Positions 10,301-51,605 of a DNA stretch of 64,000 bases are shown in pieces. Each line of letters starts with the position of its first letter. Position 1 is the stretch's first letter. Under the pieces are notes generated by a model. The model was not told where the DNA came from. It worked only from the letters and a program-made list of their open reading frames with translations, and did no database searches. Position numbers and translations under genes: made by a program. Location: contig CANQPY010000001.1 in assembly GCA_947625835.1 (NCBI GenBank), forward strand, positions 115,981 through 179,980, read 5' to 3'. This DNA is from an uncultured Clostridia bacterium (GTDB lineage: Bacteria; Bacillota; Clostridia; TANB77; CAG-508).

Positions 10301-10388
10301 CAGGATGGCAGAGCTTGGCTGATTGCGCCAGTCTTGAAAACTGGATAGGGTAACACCTACGGGGGTTCAAATCCCTCTCCTGTCGCCA
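10299..10388 (+). tRNA. tRNA-Ser(UGA)
   Basis: Acceptor GACAGGA/TCCTGTC, stem CCAGT/ACTGG, loop CTTGAAA, long variable arm, T-arm GGGGG-TTCAAAT-CCCTC, CCA. Confidence 0.9.
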
Positions 10389-10415
10389 AAACATAAATAA
10401 AAATGGAGTATATAA

Positions 10416-10876
10416 ATGAATAATTTAACCAAGATTAATACTCCTGACCTCTCATTCACTGGGGGGGGGGCTCAAACTTTCTAGAGTGGCTTACTGACAA
10501 GATCTTCCCAGTTGGTACATATTTTTCAACCGAAAGTACTTTTAACCCTAATAGTACCTTTGCTGGAGAATGGAGCGAGTTACCTCAAGGCACCTTCCTC
10601 ATGGCGGTAGGAAGCGGCGGCACAGCAGGGCAGAAGGGCGGCAGCGCAGATGCGGTTGTGGTAAAACATAATCATACCATTGTTACGCTGTTGAACACTG
10701 GAAATGGTGTGCAGAGTGAAGATCTCACAATAATATATCCACAAGGATATAATAGTAGACAAATAAGCTACTATAATAAAAATCAGCCTGTTTATGCAGA
10801 AGATACAGGCGTTGACGGCACAGGCAAAAACCTTCCTCCTTATATTACAGCACACATTTGGAAAAGAACTAAATAA
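10416..10876 (+). CDS. fibre/baseplate-tip-type protein, interrupted at a G10 tract (out of frame in this sequence)
   Basis: GGAG + ATG 10416 gives MNNLTKINTPDLSFTGGG, then a stop at 10482. The frame after G10 (10461-70) continues into ORF 10601..10876: ..FPVGTYFSTESTFNPNSTFAGEWSELPQGTFLMAVGSGGTAGQKGGSADAVVVKHNHT. Confidence 0.65.
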
Positions 10877-10908
10877 AAACAAACAAATAAAAAGGAGCTT
10901 TATCTCTC

Positions 10909-10998
10909 ATGAAATGTAATATTTTTGTGGGGGGGGGGGCAAATAGACTAATTACCACCTCTCCTAAGAATAGAACCTCTCCAAAGGAGGTTTTATAA
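10909..10998 (+). promoter_or_regulatory. 29-codon upstream ORF with G11 tract, ending 1 nt before the fibre start codon
   Basis: AGGAG 10893-97, ATG 10909, G11 10929-39, TAA 10996-98. Anti-SD TCTCC 10978-82 can pair with GGAGG 10986-90. Confidence 0.6.
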
Positions 10999-10999
10999 T

Positions 11000-11930
11000 A
11001 TGGCAAATAATAATGCAATTCGATTCTTAAGAGGGGATAGTTCAAAGAAGAGTGCAGATATTACCCTACTTGCTGGGCAACCCTTCTATGAAACCAACAC
11101 TAATAAATTGTATGTTGGAGATGGTAAAACAGCGTTGAATAAATTATCATCAATAACTAGCAATGTGGAAAATAATATTAACACTTTAAATAATAGAGTT
11201 TCTAATCTAGATCCTTATAAATATTTTTGGCAAGGTTTGTTTTCTAAAAGACTAGCTGTAAGAGTAGGTGACAGATCATTTATTACAATAAACGAGTGTG
11301 CATTTCCGGCTTTATGCGTGGATACTTATGAGTCCTCCGGAAATATAAACAGCGTATGGCAAGTCAGTTACATCGTTGAAAAAAAAAGAGTTACTATTAA
11401 TTTCTCACCCTACATGGGGACAAACTAATTCGAATAAATGGGGAACTACAGTTATATATAATTACTTAAATAATGATATTTATAGCCTTCTTCCTACATA
11501 CCTTCAAAGTTGTATAGTCCCTGTAGATAAATCCATGGGAACTTACACTACAAGGCCGTCAGGTAGTACTTATTATGACATTGGTGCTTCATCTAGACTT
11601 TGGATTCCTTCAGCACAAGAGATTTGGGGGCCAAGTGTAAATTGGTTAAATGTTGATAGGAGAGGTATATCTGTAGATGGTGGTTCGACCCAGTTTGAGT
11701 ATTATAAACAATTGTTAGGGGATAATGCAAACCCTCAAGATTCCAAGGTAGCAGCTATGCTAGCTCCTACTATAAAAATATGGTTGAGAAATTATTCTGG
11801 GCCATATAATGAGGGCTTTTATCCAAGGGGTTGCTTATTAGACACTTCTGGGTTTTTAGACAATGGTGTGGACTATAGTCAGAAAAATTCCTTAGTTTTT
11901 TGTTTTGTTTTGGGCCAATTAAGTAATTAA
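11000..11930 (+). CDS. tail-fibre-like protein (HylP/Mtd N-terminal-type motif), split by an A9 tract
   Basis: ORFs 11000..11428 and 11376..11930 overlap at A9 (11379-87). Joined, they align along the full length of paralogue 15507..16298 (WQVSY..TWG..VPVDKSMGTY..LWIPSAQEIWG). Confidence 0.7.
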
Positions 11931-11976
11931 CAAATTTGATTAAACATTTCTTCCTAAAGGAACCGACTAAAAATAG

Positions 11977-12005
11977 TTGATTCCTTTCTTGTTGTTTATT
12001 ACAAT
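11977..12005 (+). promoter_or_regulatory. early promoter cassette (TTGATT-17-TACAAT)
   Basis: AAAATAG-TTGATT..TACAAT upstream of 12032. Confidence 0.7.
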
Positions 12006-12031
12006 AAAAGTAAGAAGGGGAAATATTTTAT

Positions 12032-12739
12032 ATGGGTAAGATAACCTTAACAAGCGATGAAATCAACCACCTGAAAGAAACTGCAAAGATTCTAATCAAC
12101 ATTTCTACAAATGATGAATCTTCTCTTGCCGATCTTCATTGCAATATGGATGAGCATATGGACTATTCCAACAGCATATTTAAGAAAATAGCTGATGATT
12201 ATGACCATTACTCCGATGCATTTGCTGATATTGGGAAAATTATTCAGGTAATTGCTGAAGAAACATCAGATGAAGAGAAAGCACCTTCTACACCTCAAGC
12301 AAAAAGGAAAATTGGATTAAAAGAACTTGAAGGGGATCATATTTTATCAGGTGTTGAACTTGGCCAGGCAATGCATAAACGGGATGGTTGGCCTGAAAAA
12401 GATTATTGTAACTATGTCAAGTTCACAATTGATAATATCCATTATAGAGTATTTGAAGACCCTAGTGATGGTTATCGTAGTTATTGTGAAGATCTTGAGA
12501 TTGTAGATGAACCCTGTAATACCAGACTTCCTGATATTGAAGTTGAAATAAAATATATTAGCGTTAAACATCTTGGCGACAGTGACTTTTGGGCTGAAGA
12601 TTGCGATGTTATCCAATTTATTGATAAAGCCAATCATAAGTTGGTCCTTGAAGTGGGTACTGAAAATGTTGGTGACTGGTATCCCAGTTGCGTATTCCAT
12701 TATTATCCCGAGAATATGTCTTGTAACGAAGGGCGCTAA
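12032..12739 (+). CDS. hypothetical protein
   Basis: ORF track; AAGGGGAAA RBS. Confidence 0.8.
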   Translation: MGKITLTSDEINHLKETAKILINISTNDESSLADLHCNMDEHMDYSNSIFKKIADDYDHYSDAFADIGKIIQVIAEETSDEEKAPSTPQAKRKIGLKELEGDHILSGVELGQAMHKRDGWPEKDYCNYVKFTIDNIHYRVFEDPSDGYRSYCEDLEIVDEPCNTRLPDIEVEIKYISVKHLGDSDFWAEDCDVIQFIDKANHKLVLEVGTENVGDWYPSCVFHYYPENMSCNEGR

Positions 12740-12758
12740 ATTAGTTGGAGAATTTTTT

Positions 12759-12986
12759 ATGTTAATTGCAATTATATTATTAATCCCTATTGTTTTTATG
12801 GCAATTGGAATTTTTATATTTTTATTTCCAAAGAAAAAATCAGATAAAGGCCCTAAAATTACAGATTTGTTCTATGCTGAAACAAAGGATAGTTGTAGAA
12901 CTGTCACTGAAATGTACACCATTATAGAAGATATCAAAAAGAATGGTGGTGAATATCTTAAAAATAAGAAAAAGGAAGAGAAATAA
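12759..12986 (+). CDS. small membrane protein
   Basis: ORF 12573..12986 trimmed to ATG 12759 after GGAG; N-terminal MLIAIILLIPIVFMAIGIFIFLF. Confidence 0.7.
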   Translation: MLIAIILLIPIVFMAIGIFIFLFPKKKSDKGPKITDLFYAETKDSCRTVTEMYTIIEDIKKNGGEYLKNKKKEEK

Positions 12987-12993
12987 AATCCAT

Positions 12994-13386
12994 ATGCAAG
13001 CTTTTATTTTGGAAAGAATAACCAATGATTATAATCTAGAAACTAAACTAATTTCTAACCCTGCTATGGCTGCAATAGAATTTGCGAAATGGATAAAGCA
13101 AATGCCTAAAGAGCAAGACAGGCAAGTAGCTTTTAGAGATGCAAATATGACTGTTGCCTATGTAGTAACACCCCATATGCCTACACCTTTATGGGCACTA
13201 ATAAAAATTCCATCAGGGAATACGCCAACAGTGGAGTTTTATGCAAGAGAAACAGAAAAATCATGGCGTAAGAAAATCTTAGAAGATTTAAAGTCAAGTA
13301 CAGTTATGGGGGGTATAAAAGCGGCATGTTTCTTAAACATGCAAACCCTAGTGATTGCAGAAAATTTTAATAAAGAAGGGGTGTGA
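12994..13386 (+). CDS. hypothetical protein
   Basis: ORF 12943..13386 trimmed to first ATG after previous stop. Confidence 0.65.
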   Translation: MQAFILERITNDYNLETKLISNPAMAAIEFAKWIKQMPKEQDRQVAFRDANMTVAYVVTPHMPTPLWALIKIPSGNTPTVEFYARETEKSWRKKILEDLKSSTVMGGIKAACFLNMQTLVIAENFNKEGV

Positions 13387-13392
13387 ATTACC

Positions 13393-13620
13393 ATGTACTG
13401 GCTGATATTTTTATTTTCAGGAATTGTTTTACTAATAGGTGCCATAGGAATTGCCTATTGTGAAGCGGCTGTTCATGACTCTGACAGCAAAAAATTTGTT
13501 CAATCTCTACGTAAAGAAAAAGTAGAAAAAGACGCTGAAGAGGTCATTAAGGAAGCCTTAAATAAACTTGAGGAAGAGGGATTTGAAAATTTTGATGTTT
13601 ATAAGCACAAATTCAAATAA
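13393..13620 (+). CDS. small membrane-anchored protein
   Basis: ORF track; N-terminal hydrophobic segment. Confidence 0.75.
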   Translation: MYWLIFLFSGIVLLIGAIGIAYCEAAVHDSDSKKFVQSLRKEKVEKDAEEVIKEALNKLEEEGFENFDVYKHKFK

Positions 13621-13627
13621 TTTTTAG

Positions 13628-13656
13628 TTGATTCTTTTTCCATTTTCATTTATAAT
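13628..13656 (+). promoter_or_regulatory. early promoter cassette (TTGATT-17-TATAAT)
   Basis: TTTTTAG-TTGATT..TATAAT..AAAAAGTGAGGTA. Confidence 0.75.
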
Positions 13657-13687
13657 AACAGAGAAGAAAAAAGTGAGGTAGTTGAAA

Positions 13688-13966
13688 ATGACCAAGAAGG
13701 AAATCTTTGAAAGTTGCGTGGCTAAGGAAGACAGAGAAGATCTAATCAATCTTTGCAAGATGTTTCTTAAGCATTACTATAAGGCAGAAAATAATAATTA
13801 CCACATGCAGCTTAGAGATCTCCTTAAGCGTACAATTCAACAACTTGCTTGGAAAAATGGGTTGAACGTTACATTCAATAATAACTATCCTGACAAAGTT
13901 AGATTTTTTAATTACAGCGCTGAGTTTAGAGTAGACGCCCTTGTAGGGAATATTATTGAGGAATAA
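13688..13966 (+). CDS. hypothetical protein
   Basis: ORF 13682..13966; ATG 13688 after GTGAGGTA. Confidence 0.75.
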   Translation: MTKKEIFESCVAKEDREDLINLCKMFLKHYYKAENNNYHMQLRDLLKRTIQQLAWKNGLNVTFNNNYPDKVRFFNYSAEFRVDALVGNIIEE

Positions 13967-14115
13967 AAGTGGGGTGTAAAAATATGTTTACGAATAAAGA
14001 GTTTACATGGGCAGATTTAGCGTTCATTTATACTACTGACCTTTTTGAAACAATTTTTGTTTCACAATAAACTACATAGTGCGCTTTCTGGTAAGAAAAA
14101 TTGAGCTAAATTCAG

Positions 14116-14571
14116 ATGAGGTGGAATGTGAATAAAATCAAATTTGCAGTCCTTGATATTAAAGAGGGGCTTAAAGTAGTTGAGGTTGAAGATATAAAAT
14201 ATTCAACATTATGTTCTTACCTCCATGAAGATTATCTTGACCATGAGCATCCTACAAATATTAGGGGTGTATGGATGATTGAAGATGATGCTTTTGAATA
14301 CGCTCAAAAGGATCAGAATATCAATCAAGATTATGTTAATAATTACAGTCTTCCATTTTTCAAAGATATGTCAGGTACTATGGGAACTTGTGTCTTATTT
14401 AGGCCTGGTAAAACATTTGGTAAAGAAGGCAATTTTGACGACATTATTTCCCTTACAGAGAAAGATATAAAAACTATTGAAGCAAAAGTTAACGAGATTA
14501 AACATTTTGAGGATCTAGCACAGGAGTTAGCACATGAGATTGAAGTTAATAAAGGAAGAGTTGTTGCTTGA
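14116..14571 (+). CDS. hypothetical protein
   Basis: ORF track; GTG 14128 after GAGGTGG is an alternative start. Confidence 0.7.
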   Translation: MRWNVNKIKFAVLDIKEGLKVVEVEDIKYSTLCSYLHEDYLDHEHPTNIRGVWMIEDDAFEYAQKDQNINQDYVNNYSLPFFKDMSGTMGTCVLFRPGKTFGKEGNFDDIISLTEKDIKTIEAKVNEIKHFEDLAQELAHEIEVNKGRVVA

Positions 14572-15076
14572 AGCCACTTGGAGAAATCAAGCAAACCTTC
14601 AAAGACACTTTGAAAAGCAAGTGTTGAAAGATGGGGAAAAATTCAATCCAGATGATCCTAAATTTGCTTCAACCATGACCATTGATGATTATAAACAAGA
14701 AGCAGAGAAATTATCAACAGCAAAAGCTGATAAATCTGTTTATAAAATATATGAGCAAGATATTGAAGGTAATAAATATGAGGTTCCTAAAAGATCTCCA
14801 AACCTTGTTTCTGATATAATTGGATGGGAATTACTCCCTCAACCTGGAAGAGAAGGAAGAATGCCTAGAAAAATTAAGATTTCCAAATATATCAATCCTA
14901 AATTCTTCCCTCCCGAAGCCAAAGGTACTGGTAGGTATAGAGCAGCTGTATTTTATGTAGATGAACCTTCAGAAGACAATATTATTAGTTTTTTTATTAT
15001 CAGAGATGATAAGTTCAAAAATCTTTTCAAATATCAATGGAAAGATGAGTTGCCTGAAAATCAAAATAAAGAATAA
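14534..15076 (+). CDS. hypothetical protein
   Basis: ORF track; overlaps previous gene by 38 nt, start uncertain. Confidence 0.6.
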   Translation: MRLKLIKEELLLEATWRNQANLQRHFEKQVLKDGEKFNPDDPKFASTMTIDDYKQEAEKLSTAKADKSVYKIYEQDIEGNKYEVPKRSPNLVSDIIGWELLPQPGREGRMPRKIKISKYINPKFFPPEAKGTGRYRAAVFYVDEPSEDNIISFFIIRDDKFKNLFKYQWKDELPENQNKE

Positions 15077-15104
15077 AAAATAAATTTGTGAGGTAAATAA
15101 AAAA

Positions 15105-15374
15105 ATGGCAAAACATCAAGATCGTAAGAAACCTTCCCCTTCATTCAGTAATTTTTCTGATTCGAATCCTTTGCTCAGTTATTCATTTAAGCCTTATAGG
15201 ATTTCATGCAATGCTTATTCTACATCCAGAGTAACACTACCAGAAGCGGAAGAAATTGCACGTAAAATGCTCCAATGGTATTCTGAAGTTTGGATTGATA
15301 CTCCAAATGGAATGCACATTAATGTTGGAGATGGTACAGCAGTTGATTTTAATGAACTTGCAAAGGCTGTTTAA
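15105..15374 (+). CDS. hypothetical protein
   Basis: ORF track; GTGAGGTAAA RBS. Confidence 0.8.
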   Translation: MAKHQDRKKPSPSFSNFSDSNPLLSYSFKPYRISCNAYSTSRVTLPEAEEIARKMLQWYSEVWIDTPNGMHINVGDGTAVDFNELAKAV

Positions 15375-15419
15375 AAAGATAAAAAAAAAAATAAAATTAA
15401 AAAGGAGTTCTCTTCTCAT

Positions 15420-15506
15420 ATGAAAACATTTAGTATTTCACGGGGGGGGGGCAAACAGTTTAGTTAGTCTCACCTCTCTCGAGAACCTCTCAAGGGAGGT
15501 TTTTTA
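15420..15506 (+). promoter_or_regulatory. fibre-gene leader with G10 tract; homologue of 10909..10998, in the short-uORF register
   Basis: AGGAG 15403-07, ATG 15420, G10 15442-51. The present frame stops at TAG 15465-67. With one more G the frame would run to a TAA overlapping ATG 15507 (TAATG). Confidence 0.6.
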
Positions 15507-16298
15507 ATGGCTGGAAATAATGGAATTAAATTTCTTAGGGGCACTTCAAGCTTAAGGCGAAGTAGCACTGCTAAGCTATTATATGGTCAACCTTTCTATG
15601 AAGCTGACACAAATCTATTATATATAGGTGGAAAAGATGGTACCACATTAAATGGAGCGACCCCAATAGGGCATAGCATTCAATACTATTGGGATTGCAT
15701 AAACTGGGCATGGGTAAGGGAAGGAGATTGTGCTTTCATAGAATTACTTAATGGAAATATTGTACCTGCACGTTGTGTTAACATTGATAATCAATATAAT
15801 ATTACATGGCAGGTCAATTATCCTTCTGTATTCGACATGGGGTACTCTTTAACCTGGGGTGAGACAACCTTATTTAATCAATTAAATACCACTATTATTA
15901 ATTTATTTCCTAGTACTCTTGCATTTAATATTGTACCTGTAGTTAAATCTTCAGGTACCTACAGCAATACATCTGATCCTGGTACTGAAAGCAAGCTTTG
16001 GATACCTTCAGCTGAAGAGATTTTTGGTCAGAATGGAATTTTTCCATCTGGTATGTCCCGAGATAGTGGGTCAGTTCAGTTTGGATACTATAGAGAATTA
16101 CTAGGAAGTAATAGAAGTGCAACAGGGTATAACCCAGAATTGAGAAGTGTATCTAATTGTTGGTTAAGAAATAGATATCTCACATATAATTCGCAATGGT
16201 TTGTGTTAAAGAATAATGGTGATGTAGAGTATACCTCCGTGGGAGCGTTTAATCAACAAAGCGCGATTTTTTGCTTTACAATGAAGATAAAAAATTAG
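15507..16298 (+). CDS. tail-fibre-like protein (HylP/Mtd N-terminal-type motif)
   Basis: ORF track; IKFLRGTSS..LLYGQPFYEADTNLLYIGGKDGTTL; C-terminal LWIPSAEEIFG..VQFGYYRELLG..CWLRN. Confidence 0.85.
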   Translation: MAGNNGIKFLRGTSSLRRSSTAKLLYGQPFYEADTNLLYIGGKDGTTLNGATPIGHSIQYYWDCINWAWVREGDCAFIELLNGNIVPARCVNIDNQYNITWQVNYPSVFDMGYSLTWGETTLFNQLNTTIINLFPSTLAFNIVPVVKSSGTYSNTSDPGTESKLWIPSAEEIFGQNGIFPSGMSRDSGSVQFGYYRELLGSNRSATGYNPELRSVSNCWLRNRYLTYNSQWFVLKNNGDVEYTSVGAFNQQSAIFCFTMKIKN

Positions 16299-16327
16299 TT
16301 GATATTTTCTTTAAGTTACATTATAAT
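16299..16327 (+). promoter_or_regulatory. early promoter cassette (TTGATA-17-TATAAT)
   Basis: AAAATTAG-TTGATA..TATAAT. Confidence 0.7.
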
Positions 16328-16333
16328 ATATAT

Positions 16334-16425
16334 GTAGATAGGAAGGAACGACGCAAGGTTGGGCTTTTCTGTCTGGACTAAAAAAGCATTTCACAGTGTT
16401 GCTTTGAAGAAATGCAATAACAACA
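16334..16425 (+). ncRNA. conserved ~95-nt leader/sRNA-like segment, copy 1
   Basis: GTAGATAGGAAGG..AAAAGCATTTCACAGTGTTGCTTTGAAGAA is near-identical to 17379-17470; hairpin AAAGCA-11 nt-TGCTTT. Confidence 0.45.
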
Positions 16426-28528: not shown

Positions 28529-29074
28529 ATGGCTAATAACAGGGCACTCCAATTTTTAAGAGGTAGTGGGCATGATAAACCTAACATATTAAATCAAGGT
28601 CAACCTTATTTTGATTATACCAATAATTTACTATATATAGGAGATGGTAAGACAGCCTTAAGAAATTTGAATCCTTTATTTAATAATGAGTTTACAATTA
28701 TAAATAATAAAATAGACAGTTTGGACAGGCATAAGCCTGATAAAGAAGACTGTTGGTTAAAGCCTAGTCGTACTACATTTGTATCTTCAGGGAATTCAAA
28801 TAATAAAGCCTATATACTCTTTAAAGATGCTTTAGGCCTTCCTTATGCCATATATTATATATACATACCAAAGGCTGTAAAAAATAGGCAATACACGTGG
28901 CCATTCAGGTTATCAAGCGTTACAGCTGTAGGCATTATGGCTCCTAAGGGTGATGCACAAACATTACGTCAAGTAATTACAACTACAGATAGTGGATTTT
29001 CATTCCCTGAAACTAATAATGATATAGACATGTATGTATTGGCTTTTGGGGCTTTATATCCTTTCCAAATTTAA
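28529..29074 (+). CDS. tail-fibre-like protein (HylP/Mtd N-terminal-type motif), third paralogue, different C-terminus
   Basis: LQFLRGSGHDKPNILNQGQPYFDYTNNLLYIGDGKTALRNL; no poly-G leader. Confidence 0.8.
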   Translation: MANNRALQFLRGSGHDKPNILNQGQPYFDYTNNLLYIGDGKTALRNLNPLFNNEFTIINNKIDSLDRHKPDKEDCWLKPSRTTFVSSGNSNNKAYILFKDALGLPYAIYYIYIPKAVKNRQYTWPFRLSSVTAVGIMAPKGDAQTLRQVITTTDSGFSFPETNNDIDMYVLAFGALYPFQI

Positions 29075-33783: not shown

Positions 33784-33859
33784 ACCTTAATGTTGTAATT
33801 TAATTAGTTATTCATTCTTATTCCATCATATTTTTTCAAAAAGGATCAGTTTAAAATAG

Positions 33860-33888
33860 TTGATCTTTTTTCTTGTCTGTTATATAAT
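33860..33888 (+). promoter_or_regulatory. early promoter cassette (TTGATC-17-TATAAT)
   Basis: AAAATAG-TTGATC..TATAAT..GGTAGAAATTAAGAGTGAGGTA. Confidence 0.75.
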
Positions 33889-33921
33889 AATGGTAGAAAT
33901 TAAGAGTGAGGTAAGAAACGT

Positions 33922-34392
33922 ATGATCAAGTTTGAGGTTGGTAAGATTTACAGGTGCAATGGTGTTTTGGGCGACCGCGAAATGTTTAAGGTACTTAAGA
34001 GAAATGATAAGAACCTTTGGACAGTTTTTGTTACAGAAGATGGTCGCGAATATGATCTCGACTTCACTTACAGAAAGATTAAAACTACAGATTGGTTACA
34101 TGGGGATGAAAATTATGAATATGTCACCTTCCCAGTTGGTATTCCTGGACTTACCTTCAACGCAACAAATATAGTTGATAACTATGATGAAATTGTAGAA
34201 AATGCCAAGAAGAAGGAAGAAAAGAAAAAAGCTGAAAAGGAAGCAAGAATACAAGCCCAAGCAGAAGAATTGAAGAATTTTCTTAAGGAAAACAACATCA
34301 CCCTTGAATTTGCAGAAAAAATTGAAAATGGGATGCGTATGTTTAGTAGTAATGTTATTGAAGCGGTACGTGAAGAAAGCAGGAATGACTAA
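33922..34392 (+). CDS. hypothetical protein
   Basis: ORF track. Confidence 0.8.
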   Translation: MIKFEVGKIYRCNGVLGDREMFKVLKRNDKNLWTVFVTEDGREYDLDFTYRKIKTTDWLHGDENYEYVTFPVGIPGLTFNATNIVDNYDEIVENAKKKEEKKKAEKEARIQAQAEELKNFLKENNITLEFAEKIENGMRMFSSNVIEAVREESRND

Positions 34393-49837: not shown

Positions 49838-50923
49838 ATGTCAATTCCTATTTTCGATGAATTAAATGTGCAGACTCTAGAAGGTGTTCTTGCAGATATC
49901 TCTCAAATACGTGGAGCTCCAAAATTTAAATTAACAGGGGACGCGATAGAAGATAAAGGGGGTGTAGGAACCGCATATACATTAAATACCAAGGACTTAA
50001 CCCCCACTACACCAGCTTCTATTTCGGGAGATGTAGTAATATTTTCTACTACTAAATCATCTTATTTGGCTAAAGTTAATAGTGCAGATAGTACGAATGT
50101 AGAAGTTACTGTTGTTGAGGCTTTAGGTAGCAGCAGCAGCGCAGGTTATGATACTATTATTTCTAACCAAGAAGAGTTTGAAGCATGGTATGCCGAACTT
50201 GATGCAGGTACTTATGAGGGTGAAAGCGTTCTTATATTAAGTGGTACCTATACGAGAGATGACGGAAATGGATTGCATTTTCCTGATACATTAAAACAGG
50301 TGTGTGGGCTTGGAAATGTTCAAATTAAAATAAGTAATTTTAAAGATAATAATAGTGGGAAAGGTGGAATATGGTATACTGTACTACCTGAAAATGAGCA
50401 ATATTTTATAAAAAATATTGATGTTATTATATCTGCTGGTGACCAAGGTTATGGAATACTTCCTGCTTTTATAAAATGTAAAAATTTAATTAATTGTGTT
50501 GGTGAAAGTAATAGCAGTAGTTCTGGTTATTCTCCTTGTAGCTTTCAAGAGTGTGTAAATTTAATTAATTGCATAGGCAAAAGTACTTATAGTACTGATG
50601 TTGTTGGTATTGCTTATGGTTTTTTTAAATGTACCAATTTAATTAATTGTACTTGTAATACCAGCGCTAGGGGTGGAAGTAGTCGTAGTTTTGCTGTTTG
50701 CAAATATTTAATTAGTTGTACTGGTAGCGCTATTGGTAAGAATAATAGTTATACTTTCTCTGATTGTAATATATGTTCTAACTGCCATCAAGACCTAGAT
50801 AATGCTTCTACAACTGCAACGTGGGGTGGGAATAATACCAATGTAGACCCTAATACATGCCCTGAATATACTGGTTCATATAATACTGCCATTCCAATTA
50901 CAGACTTAAGAGGTGTAAATTAA
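49838..50923 (+). CDS. receptor-binding-type protein with Cys-containing leucine-rich repeats
   Basis: Repeats FIKCKNLINCVG / FQECVNLINCIG / FFKCTNLINCTC / FAVCKYLISCTG (BspA/LRR_5-like). N-terminal module shared with 54586..55869. Confidence 0.75.
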   Translation: MSIPIFDELNVQTLEGVLADISQIRGAPKFKLTGDAIEDKGGVGTAYTLNTKDLTPTTPASISGDVVIFSTTKSSYLAKVNSADSTNVEVTVVEALGSSSSAGYDTIISNQEEFEAWYAELDAGTYEGESVLILSGTYTRDDGNGLHFPDTLKQVCGLGNVQIKISNFKDNNSGKGGIWYTVLPENEQYFIKNIDVIISAGDQGYGILPAFIKCKNLINCVGESNSSSSGYSPCSFQECVNLINCIGKSTYSTDVVGIAYGFFKCTNLINCTCNTSARGGSSRSFAVCKYLISCTGSAIGKNNSYTFSDCNICSNCHQDLDNASTTATWGGNNTNVDPNTCPEYTGSYNTAIPITDLRGVN

Positions 50924-50924
50924 C

Positions 50925-51605
50925 ATGTCTTATTATGATGTTTATATAGATGGAAAACCTTATAGGCTGTATATGGGGGGGGGGGCATATGATGCTTTCC
51001 TAAAAGATACAGGAGATGGAAAATTAACAATAGCCGTAGCAAAGTTATCAGTAAGTTATGATTCAACTACAAACATGGTAAATTGCACAATAGAAGATTT
51101 AAGTGAAACAGGAAAAAGAATAAAAGATCAATTAAGGTTAGAATTTGAATATAAGCATGGAGAACCGCTTTATAGAAATTATAGTGAGACTGTAAGTAGT
51201 TCTTTGCTGGATTATAGCAGACCTTATAATCCTGATAATGGTCACTATCAAGGAAGACATGCAATTATAGATACTAATAGAGTATGGTGCGCTTCTCCTT
51301 TTTTAACAAAAAATCTTGCAGATGATTTTGGTTCTAATAACTCACCCAGTTCTAATAGGACACTATCTAAAAATAATCCTCCATTAGATATAGGAGTAAC
51401 TGTTAGTTATAATTTATCTGATCTTTTTTCTGGAGAACCTAATGTACTAAATGGGAATCCACGCAGTGCTGAAAATGGGTTTTATACTTATGGAGATTAT
51501 GATTATTATTTAGATACGAGATTTTATATTCGTAATAGGCGAACGGATAGATTTCTTAAAACTATTTCTCCAGTTTTACGTTTGACTTATAAAAAATTAA
51601 ATTAA
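50925..51605 (+). CDS. hypothetical virion protein with an in-frame G11 tract; paralogue of 51694..52398
   Basis: MSYYDVYIDGKPYRLYMGGGAYD.. versus MSYYNIYIGDKPYQLYIEDIAYD..; G11 at 50975-85. Confidence 0.8.
   Translation: MSYYDVYIDGKPYRLYMGGGAYDAFLKDTGDGKLTIAVAKLSVSYDSTTNMVNCTIEDLSETGKRIKDQLRLEFEYKHGEPLYRNYSETVSSSLLDYSRPYNPDNGHYQGRHAIIDTNRVWCASPFLTKNLADDFGSNNSPSSNRTLSKNNPPLDIGVTVSYNLSDLFSGEPNVLNGNPRSAENGFYTYGDYDYYLDTRFYIRNRRTDRFLKTISPVLRLTYKKLN

Follow-up and report, generated by a model that had tools for sequence, protein, structure and literature searches.

The leaders of two paralogous fibre-like genes in a ~199-kb tRNA-rich phage appear to be slipped-strand switches. In each leader, the length of a G homopolymer within a short upstream ORF (uORF) would determine whether ribosomes translate through the hairpin that buries the Shine-Dalgarno (SD) sequence of the fibre gene. 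Judging from comparison of sequences across phages, this combination of leader-ORF translation and translational coupling, possibly with some transcription attenuation as well, is the probable mode of action, although well short of certain. A somewhat weaker case, still tilted in favour, can be made that several unrelated phage lineages share an undescribed class of contingency switch, in which a homopolymer in a non-functional leader ORF gates a receptor-binding gene with a hairpin-locked SD. Such a switch would give a heritable, reversible ON/OFF choice that leaves the protein sequence untouched and, in some genomes, is layered on mutagenesis of the same gene by a diversity-generating retroelement (DGR). 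An initial annotation of this DNA had proposed a slipped-strand switch acting by translational coupling, and the comparative evidence (ten diverged leaders, both registers, one-G differences, and recurrence in IMG/VR) appears to support that proposal. Its authors knew of no description of the arrangement, and no prior description was found.

Leader of locus 1

All features described here lie on the + strand of the window, i.e., the whole 64,000-nt stretch of DNA that was analysed. The locus 1 leader opens with the uORF SD sequence AAAGGAG (10891-10897), kept as AAAGGAG or AGGAGG in 10 of 10 homologous leaders. It is followed by an 11-nt C/U-rich spacer (10898-10908) that is complementary to the poly-G tract and pairs with it in most leader folds. 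The C fraction of the leader spacers is 0.3, versus 0.09 for the spacers of window genes, and the uORF SD-ATG spacing (11 to 12 nt versus a mode of 8) lies in the tail of the phage's own distribution. The uORF AUG is part of a small predicted hairpin (10906-10931) that forms the inner part of a larger one, hairpin A; an equivalent self-complementary stretch is present in every leader, with a different sequence. Because the AUG is enclosed in a stable predicted hairpin and the spacing is long, initiation at the uORF may be weak.

In the read-through register, the uORF (10909-10998) consists of 29 codons and a TAA stop (10996-98) and encodes the peptide MKCNIFVGGGANRLITTSPKNRTSPKEVL. It contains the proposed slipped-strand element, a tract of 11 G residues (10929-10939), shortly after which come stops in the two other frames (10944-10951), TAG at 10944-46 and TAA at 10949-51. 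With G10 or G13, the uORF would end at the latter, and with G9 or G12, at the former. No tract length can fuse the uORF to the fibre gene, which agrees with the earlier view that the structural gene itself is not frameshifted. A role of the poly-G as an N-terminal extension of the fibre is ruled out, since the fibre-frame register (G10/G13) meets the TAA at 10949-51.

Further downstream is a first CCTCTCC copy (10958-10964), an alternative anti-SD that is paired with the poly-G when the whole leader is folded. In the minimum-energy fold, hairpin B (10970-10996), in which 10970-80 pairs with 10986-96, buries the fibre SD GGAGG (10986-90) and is followed by UUUUAUAAU. This hairpin, which lies inside the uORF, has a predicted energy of -13 kcal/mol (z = -2.2) and was flagged as terminator-like in a scan. 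The uORF TAA stops 1 nt 5' of the fibre ATG at 11000; in the registers without read-through, the uORF ends 4 to 9 nt past the tract, approximately 20 nt before the hairpin.

The motif positions in the initial annotation (AGGAG 10893-97, ATG 10909, 11 G at 10929-39, GGAGG 10986-90, TCTCC 10978-82, and CCTCTCC 10958-64) were all confirmed, and so were the 29-codon frame with G11 ending 1 nt before the fibre start and the early stops with G10 (TAA) and G12 (TAG). The pairing of the fibre SD with the TCTCC region is likewise predicted by the fold. That annotation had missed the conserved 5' hairpin between the poly-G and the C/U-rich spacer, as well as a possible function of the SD hairpin and its U run in transcription attenuation.

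An Rfam search of positions 10380-15600 returned no known RNA family. No sigma-70-like -35/-10 pair spanning 10929-39 or the locus 2 tract at 15442-51 was seen at the scan threshold; with flanking hexamers lacking, a promoter-spacer homopolymer was rejected. Exact look-up of the predicted uORF peptides and the A8-fused fibre (see below) in a protein collection gave no matches, a result that is uninformative for such short peptides.

Locus 2 and the fibre-like genes

The leader at locus 2 (15401-15509) is a paralogue of the locus 1 leader, with AAAGGAG at 15401-07, ATG at 15420, G10 at 15442-51, a hairpin at 15472-15500, and TAATG at 15505-09. Its uORF is off register and stops at TAG 15465-67; G9 or G12 would restore read-through.

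The fibre-like gene at locus 1 (11000-11930) matches the Pfam domains Mtd_N and DUF6273 and consists of two ORFs (11000-11428 and 11376-11930). It is broken at a run of nine A residues (A9, 11379-87) in all assemblies, whereas A8 would fuse the two parts, so the ON leader may gate a non-functional or slippage-dependent gene. The paralogue at locus 2 (15507-16298) is intact and encodes a 263-aa protein, for which an AlphaFold model has a pLDDT of 89. The Mtd_N match of the fibre-like protein scores 25 bits, just below the cutoff of 26.3, and DUF6273 was also matched. In the model of the locus 2 product, the N-terminal ~50 residues superpose on the N terminus of HylP, a tail fibre of a streptococcal phage (probability 0.99, rmsd ~2 A); a profile search against PDB sequences found no match to the fibre-like protein. 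The gated gene is thus predicted to encode a fibre or Mtd-like receptor-binding protein, with an N-terminal fibre module and a variable C-terminal binding domain. The fibre-like genes are situated outside the structural module of the phage.

One homologue with the same poly-G leader (L136) has, downstream of it, an RVT_1 gene and a TR/VR pair, with mismatches nearly all at TR adenines, and is a DGR target. No RT or TR was seen in the window.

Poly-G tracts of the phage

The window contains four tracts of 10 or 11 G residues, all on the + strand. Two of them are intragenic; the other two are in the homologous 120- to 130-nt leaders, each 5' of a paralogous Mtd-like fibre gene. These four tracts account for 14 G8 matches, whereas shuffled sequences average 0.42 and never exceed 4, in line with the previous estimate that an 11-G run is unlikely by chance. 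Only two other G runs are present, both G6, making the distribution of G-run lengths bimodal (up to G6 or G10-11), and C runs of at least 6 are absent from the window. The G11 tract at 10929-39 exceeds the 8-nt minimum taken as a mark of slippage-prone homopolymers and is far longer than chance would give.

The first intragenic tract is a G10 (10461-70) in a Gp10_C-like tail gene (10416-10876), out of frame in the window and in frame (G11) in other assemblies; the second is an in-frame G11 (50975-85) in the ORF at 50925-51605. In two of the other assemblies, L146 and L147, the tract at 10461-70 is G11 instead of G10, the only difference from the window over 12.4 and 2.1 kb, although homopolymer length in short-read assemblies may be off by one. 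From this difference, poly-G in the phage is, as far as assemblies can tell, hypermutable. At locus 2, all four assemblies of the phage have G10. The tract at 10929-39 is G11 in the window and three further assemblies (L001, L146, and L147) and is therefore no one-off assembly artefact. The initial annotation had regarded an invariant tract length as evidence against a switch: locus 1 is indeed invariant across the four assemblies, whereas its homologues vary (G13/G14 and G11/G12).

Searches for nucleotide relatives of the phage gave no match among INPHARED phages, and neither a fibre relative nor a leader of the window type was found in IMG/VR. Stop-codon reassignment in this phage is unlikely, as its long ORFs end at TAA, TGA, and TAG (37, 10, and 5, respectively).

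Homologous leaders

Homologous leaders were collected via homology of the fibre proteins, not via the leader sequence. The set comprises ten leaders, those of locus 1 (W1) and locus 2 (W2) and L002-8, L135, L136/7, L138, L139/L140, L141, L142, and L148. All ten have a common plan: AAAGGAG, a C/U-rich spacer, ATG, 6 to 12 codons, and a tract of 9 to 14 G residues, followed by prompt stops in two frames, with the third open through a hairpin that buries the fibre SD. The TAA of the open frame is placed 2 to 7 nt 5' of the fibre ATG or overlaps it; the homologues have either TAATG or a gap of 1 to 4 nt (TAATG, TAAtATG, TAAcattATG). The uORFs have 28 to 38 codons with a conserved SD, ATG, and A-rich second codon, and the tracts of 9 to 14 G are retained across leaders with diverged flanks. 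The long uORF frame, whose conservation in related genomes had been suggested as a check, is kept open in ten diverged leaders. A scan for the L023-type uORF revealed no locus beyond the three already known.

Four of the ten leaders are in the read-through (ON) register and six are OFF; taken with 1 ON of 9 in IMG/VR (see below), ON registers are no more frequent than the one-third expected if the register were irrelevant. Leaders L141 (G13, OFF) and L142 (G14, ON) have one substitution between them. L139 (G11) and L140 (G12) precede genes for the same fibre protein and are both OFF; L139 has lost 38 nt that correspond exactly to the 5' arm of the SD hairpin, and its predicted SD pairing is down to 0.39.

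The offset of the open frame from the tract end in eight leaders is 2, 2, 2, 2, 2, 0, 0, and 1. It thus differs between lineages while the frame remains open, indicating that the frame has survived frame-shifting indels. Paired off-frame stops soon after the tract are present in 7 of the 8 leaders tested; in L138, one off frame extends into the hairpin loop. When the linkers are shuffled, a leader has an open coupling frame, with the two others closed before the hairpin, at a probability of 0.05 to 0.30, whereas 7 of 8 leaders comply; for five distinct patterns, the product is ~5e-6. The open frame alone is less discriminating, with a null of 0.35 to 0.76 per leader and a product of 0.015.

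All intact leaders are predicted to form the SD hairpin, with energies between -13 and -26 kcal/mol and, in 5 of 6 folded, z values around -2.2 to -2.9; the stem sequences differ between leaders, e.g., CCUCUCU/AGGGAGG versus CCCCCUUCCA/UGGAAGGGGG. Predicted SD pairing probability in the leaders is 0.79 to 1.0, being 0.79 at locus 1 and at least 0.95 in 6 of 8 leaders, compared with a median of 0.64 for ordinary window genes, 13% of which reach 0.9. W1, W2, L135, L136, L138, and L140 have a U-rich tail after the hairpin, which L141, L142, and L148 lack. The whole-leader predicted 5' hairpins are very stable (z down to -6.3), and the RNAalifold consensus of a MAFFT alignment pairs the poly-G with the first anti-SD copy; covariation in this consensus is of limited use because the leaders align poorly, and per-sequence folds were used instead.

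Varying the tract from G7 to G15 near the native lengths leaves predicted SD burial unaltered, making the reading frame, rather than RNA structure, the plausible read-out of tract length; sensing of length by structure alone is unsupported. As sigma-70-like hexamer pairs are also lacking, the frame is the only obvious read-out.

Poly-G leaders in unrelated phages

In unrelated poly-G leaders from IMG/VR, the long frame ends -5 to +4 nt from the downstream gene start in 9 of 10 cases. The null for this stop-at-start geometry is 0.20 to 0.29, which gives binomial probabilities of 4e-6 to 1e-4. The ON register is found in 1 of 9 of these leaders, and several of the downstream genes are tail-fibre-like.

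Proposed mechanism and alternatives

Replication slippage would alter the number of G residues at high frequency, and the leader ORF would be translated. In the read-through register, translating ribosomes would melt the SD hairpin, after which the terminating ribosome might re-initiate or the freed SD might recruit a new 30S subunit, and the fibre would be made; in the other registers, the hairpin would remain shut and the fibre gene silent. Given the U run after the hairpin, translating ribosomes may, in addition, keep transcription from terminating too early, an attenuator-like second layer. Probable roles of the 5' hairpin, in which the C/U-rich spacer and poly-G enclose the uORF AUG, are to restrict or time initiation at the uORF or else to hold the poly-G off the anti-SD. 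Location of the tract in the leader lets the gene be switched without insertion of poly-Gly into the conserved fibre N terminus. Two marks of translational coupling are read from the sequence or predicted at locus 1: the uORF stop (TAA 10996-98) is within a few nucleotides of the downstream start (ATG 11000), and the downstream ribosome-binding site is predicted to be sequestered in a structure (10970-96) within the upstream ORF.

The poly-G might instead be a structural element of the RNA only, pairing with C/U-rich partners in cis (the uORF spacer and the anti-SD copies) or in trans (an sRNA, cf. RepG), so that its length gradually tunes folding, stability, processing (e.g., by RNase III on the long 5' hairpin), or SD access, the frame is irrelevant, and the uORF is not functionally translated. 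The conserved complementarity of spacer and tract, the stability of the 5' hairpins, the consensus pairing of poly-G with the first anti-SD copy, the buried uORF AUG with its long SD spacing, and the chance frequency of ON registers are all compatible with this, and there are precedents in the targeting of a G-repeat leader by RepG (PMC8295292) and in the hmw repeat, which is in a 5' UTR and involves RNase III (PMC12721329). Such a purely structural role is nonetheless unlikely, given the constant SD burial from G7 to G15, and it leaves unexplained the paired off-frame stops, the frame kept open through indels, the stop-at-start geometry in 10 homologous and 9 unrelated leaders, and the conserved SD, ATG, and A-rich second codon.

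About equally doubtful is a mainly transcriptional switch, in which the SD hairpin and U run form an intrinsic terminator blocked by a ribosome on the long frame (leader-peptide attenuation, with tract length as the gate) or promoter geometry changes with the tract, as in promoter-spacer phase variation. The terminator-like hairpins followed by UUUUAUAAU in W1 and UUUUUU in W2, a layout resembling that of classical attenuators (5' hairpin, SD hairpin, and possible poly-G/anti-SD pairing), and the absence of a sigma-70-type early promoter (TAGTTGAT-N17-TATAAT) directly upstream speak for it. However, three leaders lack the U run, neither tract is flanked by a -35/-10 pair at the scan threshold, and the nearest AT-rich hexamer lies 2 to 12 nt from the tract end, depending on the leader; moreover, the attenuation form is a variant of the favoured coupling mechanism and no true rival. 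Less probable still is the absence of any switch, with the leader and poly-G being an inherited boundary of fibre-gene cassettes, prone to recombination, and the open frame a by-product of stop-poor C/U- and G-rich hairpin arms, or with the tract lengths being assembly noise. The hairpin arms are indeed stop-free in all frames, so that only a linker of 15 to 37 nt must stay open (the null of 0.35 to 0.76 given above). The leader also always accompanies the conserved N-terminal fibre module and is dispensed with in paralogues L133, L134, L143, L144, and the window gene at 28529, with TAATG also present at the leaderless L133 and L134. Nevertheless, the joint pattern is improbable under shuffling, the geometry recurs independently in unrelated phages, the window G-run lengths are bimodal, the 9- to 14-G tracts are kept despite diverged flanks, and they are reproduced in independent assemblies.

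Relation to known systems

Phage contingency loci have been reported (bioRxiv 10.1101/2025.10.21.683753), and in Campylobacter phages, receptor-binding genes contain hypermutable poly-G tracts (Sorensen et al. 2021, Cell Rep 35:109214, as cited in PMC12823448 and PMC10877375). The phage described here likewise has G homopolymers at host-recognition genes, slippage of which creates ON and OFF subpopulations in the Campylobacter phages, and its tracts at 10461-70 and 50975-85 are exactly of that intragenic kind. Whereas the Campylobacter tracts lie inside the structural ORF and frameshift the protein, the locus 1 tract is in a separate 29-codon leader ORF, and its proposed read-out is ribosome passage through the SD hairpin.

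Translational coupling by a short uORF is known for iraD (PMC5574718), and termination-reinitiation, described at ATGA/TGATG overlaps, requires overlaps or very short stop-start gaps, according to PMC6728339 and PMC10666635. The very short gaps at the leaders match that requirement and count in favour of coupling. Leader-peptide translation attenuation operates in the erm and cat genes. As in these coupled systems, the short leader ORF reaches up to the downstream start or overlaps it, and a hairpin-sequestered SD could be opened by leader translation. Their input, however, is a regulator, a stalled ribosome, or constitutive, whereas here the frame would be set by the length of a DNA homopolymer, a heritable and reversible input.

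Homopolymers in promoter spacers cause phase variation by repeats outside the ORF. In Haemophilus influenzae hmw, a 5'-UTR repeat is associated with an RNase III-targeted hairpin (PMC12721329). The poly-G leaders share with both a simple-sequence repeat outside the regulated ORF and a structured 5' UTR, but those repeats act on transcription or mRNA processing, and promoter hexamers flanking the tract are absent here. The Helicobacter pylori tlpB mRNA leader has a variable G-repeat targeted by the sRNA RepG (PMC8295292); it, too, is a length-variable G run in a 5' leader that acts post-transcriptionally and pairs with C/U-rich RNA. RepG works in trans, graded with length and independently of frame, whereas the C/U-rich partner in the phage leaders is in cis, and what is conserved there (start codon, off-frame stops, and stop at start) depends on the frame.

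If the proposed mechanism holds, gating of a translationally coupled leader ORF would be a third route of switching by simple-sequence repeats, beside ORF frameshifting and promoter spacing. Standard annotation misses such switches because the tract is "intergenic" and the uORF has only 28 to 38 codons. Large uncultured phages would then keep several alternative receptor-binding proteins under stochastic control, and consensus genomes are mostly in the OFF state. This would bear on host-range prediction from sequence, on phage therapy design, and on how metagenomic fibre genes that look silent or "pseudogenised" are interpreted. The leader design would also be a compact, portable part for synthetic stochastic switches.

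In Bordetella phage BPP-1, a DGR acts on the Mtd-like tropism protein. The genes gated by poly-G leaders share an Mtd_N-like N terminus, and the L136 relative has both the leader and a DGR. The DGR rewrites the receptor-binding surface, whereas the leader would set the gene ON or OFF.

Leader of the locus 1 fibre gene

The leader of locus 1 carries on its + strand a Shine-Dalgarno (SD) sequence, AAAGGAG (10891-97), and an ATG (10909) that opens an upstream ORF (uORF) containing a tract of eleven G (10929-39). This frame remains open up to a TAA (10996-98) separated by a single nucleotide from the start codon of the fibre-like gene (ATG 11000), and the sequence agrees with the initial annotation at every coordinate. 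The SD of the fibre gene, GGAGG (10986-90), faces TCTCC (10978-82), and the additional CCTCTCC copy is found at 10958-64, both as described there. The early stops predicted for other tract lengths are recovered on recomputing the frames: with G10 or G13, the uORF ends at TAA 10949-51, and with G9 or G12, at TAG 10944-46. At no tract length is it fused to the fibre frame. The read-through register, in which the uORF ends at the fibre start, is referred to here as ON and the other two registers as OFF.

Leaders of homologous fibre genes

Further leaders were collected with the fibre protein, and not the leader sequence, as the search query, so that the leader features are independent observations. 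The same whole plan is found in ten leaders, of which 4 are ON and 6 are OFF; the share of ON registers is what chance would give. The homologous leader of locus 2, upstream of the paralogue at 15507 (+ strand), contains AAAGGAG, an ATG (15420), a G10 tract (15442-51), and a hairpin (15472-15500). Read-through to the end of its long frame, at TAATG 15505-09, would take G9 or G12; at G10, the stop is TAG 15465-67. In addition to locus 1 (G11), the ON leaders are those of L138 (G9), L142 (G14, with a 37-codon uORF already called as a gene), and L148 (G11, with a 38-codon uORF and TAATG), whereas the OFF leaders include locus 2 and those of L002-8 (G9, seven contigs), L135 and L136/7 (G11 in both), L140 (G12), and L141 (G13). 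No conservation of the uORF peptide beyond the constraint imposed by the RNA is seen among the compared leaders; if anything counts, it is the act of translation.

Some homologues lack the leader (L133, L134, L143, and L144/5). A third paralogue in the window (28529-29074) has the N-terminal module (MANNRALQFLRG...GQPYFDY) and a plain SD-ATG, with no poly-G leader. The terminal TAATG is also found at leaderless paralogues.

The initial annotation proposed a comparison of related genomes for conservation of the long uORF frame, and such a frame stays open in the leaders compared. Since no frame contains a stop within the hairpin arms, shuffling was limited to the linker of 15 to 37 nt that separates the tract from the hairpin. 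The coupling frame is open in such shuffles with a probability of 0.35 to 0.76 per leader (product over eight leaders, 0.015), and it is open with both other frames closed before the hairpin with a probability of 0.05 to 0.30. The latter, stricter pattern is seen in seven of the eight leaders (~5e-6, counting one leader per distinct stop pattern), these values being indicative only, as the criteria were picked post hoc and the leaders are related. The pattern persists despite differing offsets of the open frame from the tract end (2, 2, 2, 2, 2, 0, 0, and 1); therefore, frame-shifting indels were accommodated.

RNA structure of the leaders

In every intact leader, the fibre SD is predicted to be buried in a hairpin (−13 to −26 kcal/mol), with z scores of −2.2 to −2.9 in five of the six leaders folded. 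Its stems vary in sequence, from the perfect CCCCCUUCCA/UGGAAGGGGG in L002 to ACCUCUCU/AGGGAGGU in the locus 2 group and ACACCUCU/GGAGGUGU in L141. The predicted pairing probability of the SD core is at least 0.95 in 6 of 8 leaders and 0.79 at locus 1; for ordinary genes of the window, the median is 0.64, with just 13% at 0.9 or above. In L139, a loss of 38 nt removes exactly the 5′ arm of this hairpin and lowers the predicted SD pairing to 0.39. L139, with a coverage of only ~3.6×, may represent a natural derepressed variant.

A second conserved feature, absent from the initial annotation, is a 5′ hairpin. The spacer between the uORF SD and ATG is 11 to 12 nt long (versus a mode of 8) and rich in C (fraction of 0.3 versus 0.09). 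In most leader folds, it pairs with the poly-G tract, enclosing a small hairpin with the uORF AUG; in the minimum-energy fold of locus 1, the tract pairs instead with the first CCUCUCC copy. Whole-leader z scores range from −1.8 (locus 1) to −6.3. In an in silico series from G7 to G15, burial of the SD is essentially constant near the native tract lengths.

Proposed mechanism

Several features of the leaders would require translation: the conserved SD, ATG, and A-rich second codon, the prompt stops in two frames, the one frame open through the hairpin, and the stop at the start codon. Combined with a predicted structure that is insensitive to tract length, they favour a switch that reads the frame. 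In one register, ribosomes would pass through the SD hairpin, opening it, and reach their stop at the fibre start, where they could re-initiate or a new 30S subunit could bind; in the two OFF registers, they would halt ~20 nt before the hairpin. The 5′ hairpin may restrict or time uORF initiation or insulate the poly-G tract from the anti-SD, and among the features of the leader it is the main reason to suspect that the uORF could be weakly translated. The U run that follows the SD hairpin, flagged as terminator-like, might add a layer of attenuation in most leaders, although it is absent in L141, L142, and L148. On balance, we consider frame-gated coupling moderately probable, and the comparative evidence supports the original proposal that tract length might gate hairpin-opening translation.

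Full-text literature searches turned up no account of a leader ORF that is gated by a repeat and coupled to the gene after it; locus 1 joins known parts in a combination of which no description was found. Among the closest known systems are the intragenic poly-G tracts of Campylobacter phage RBP genes and overlap translational coupling (PMC6728339, PMC10666635), a recent preprint on phage contingency loci, uORF translational coupling (PMC5574718), the RepG-targeted G-repeat leader of Helicobacter pylori tlpB (PMC8295292), and the hmw 5′-UTR repeat (PMC12721329).

Variability of the poly-G tracts

The window contains four tracts of G10-11 (10461-70, 10929-39, 15442-51, and 50975-85), each of them on the + strand, giving 14 matches to G8 versus a mean of 0.42 in shuffles. 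Apart from these, G runs are limited to two of G6, and no run of C is as long as 6.

Length variation, as anticipated by the initial annotation, is not seen at locus 1, where G11 is also read in three more assemblies of this phage, but homologous leaders differ by a single G. Thus, the leaders of L141 and L142 differ by one substitution and G13 versus G14, and L139 and L140, from two samples, encode the same fibre protein behind G11 versus G12. Lengths of homopolymers taken from assemblies are error-prone. The neighbouring Gp10_C-like tail gene (10416-10876, + strand) carries an intragenic G10 (10461-70) past codon 15, which leaves it out of frame in the window. With G11, it would yield a 153-aa product, and this exact protein is present in the protein collection, encoded by L146 (97.7 kb, 39× coverage) and L147. 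Over 12.4 kb and 2.1 kb, respectively, these contigs match the window at every position save for one G in this tract; their leader tracts and the A9 run of the locus 1 gene are the same. Judging from this tract, poly-G appears to be hypermutable in this phage.

Two short fibre-homologue contigs, L009 (1-8) and L132 (1-9), start inside the leader homopolymer, L132 with G9 and L009 with C8 instead of G; such tracts tend to break assemblies. An ORF of unknown function adjoining the tail module (50925-51605) contains an in-frame G11 (50975-85) encoding GGG. A cluster mate on another contig, P0062 (176 aa), starts at the internal Met51, which suggests an out-of-frame variant there. Just 5′ of this gene, within ORF 49838-50923, are three tandem repeats of ~75 to 78 nt (50468-50672) with 65 to 71% identity to the reference copy.

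Putatively gated genes and their phage

The window is a portion of a ~199-kb phage contig with 24 tRNA genes and 33% G+C. The standard code applies, because long ORFs end with all three stop codons. No close relatives are found in INPHARED or IMG/VR; relatives were obtained from gut-type assemblies (ENA and Logan) and from a MAG of rabbit-gut origin labelled "uncultured Bacilli." In two independent contigs, L130 and L131 (one of 192 kb), a fibre-like N terminus (MSIQFKRGKSTAKNSS*TLLAGQPFYETD, ~1501-1560) contains an in-frame TAG, perhaps because the phage in question reassigns or suppresses amber codons.

The gated genes encode an Mtd_N-like N terminus and DUF6273. In the AlphaFold model of the intact paralogue at 15507 (pLDDT 89), the first ~50 residues superpose on the N terminus of HylP, a streptococcal phage tail fibre; the best whole-chain match is the IgA peptidase of Thomasclavelia ramosa (E = 1.7e-4). 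In the relative phage L136 (ERZ27249248, 10001-12840), a fibre homologue with a poly-G leader (G11) is followed by an RVT_1 reverse transcriptase. The VR at the 3′ end of this homologue (10664-10764) and the TR upstream of the RVT_1 gene (11312-11412) form a 101-nt pair, and the mismatches are nearly all at TR adenines, which identifies a diversity-generating retroelement (DGR). Given the domain content, the HylP-like model, and the DGR, a putative assignment as receptor-binding fibre proteins is reasonable. The gated genes are located amid tRNA and nucleotide-metabolism genes, outside the structural module.

At locus 1, an A9 run (11379-87), present in all four assemblies, breaks the fibre gene up into two ORFs, 11000-11428 and 11376-11930; with A8, a 309-aa protein would align with homologues across the junction. 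This run could mark a pseudogene, a second contingency tract, or a transcriptional-slippage site. Consequently, the consensus genome combines an ON leader and a broken gene at locus 1 with an OFF leader and an intact gene at locus 2.

TAGTTGAT-N17-TATAAT, a promoter-like motif with GTGAGGT and ATG after it, is found at ~15 sites in the window (e.g., 1222-1289, 11969-12012, 16288-16351, and 33857-33924), probably representing early promoters. None precedes the poly-G leaders, where an A-rich ATAAAA-type sequence is found instead.

Recurrence in unrelated phages

A pattern search of IMG/VR specifying only AAAGGAG, an ATG, and at least eight G matched at least 120 loci, about half of them intragenic tracts. 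Ten leader-type loci remain when the downstream gene has at least 100 codons, an SD, and a start 30 to 140 nt past the tract. In nine of these, the longest frame ends −5 to +4 nt from the gene start (ATGA, TGATG, TAATG, or TAAtATG), compared with 20% (IMG/VR loci) or 29% (window) for pseudo-tracts before ordinary genes (binomial P of 4e-6 to 1e-4). Only one of nine is ON. Strong SD burial is predicted in about half of these leaders, and tail-fibre-like genes follow several of them.

The intragenic matches include a Gp10_C-like family (MAIGDLNIAGGGG...YPIGSIYMS) with N-terminal poly-G of G8 to G12 among near-identical contigs (L019, L028, L029, L033, L046, L085, L094, L097, L103, and others); an in-frame TAG is conserved in this family at a position occupied by Trp in homologues (GGT*E). 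G10-11 is also present in the signal peptide of a lipoprotein-like family (L012, L015, L043, and L048).
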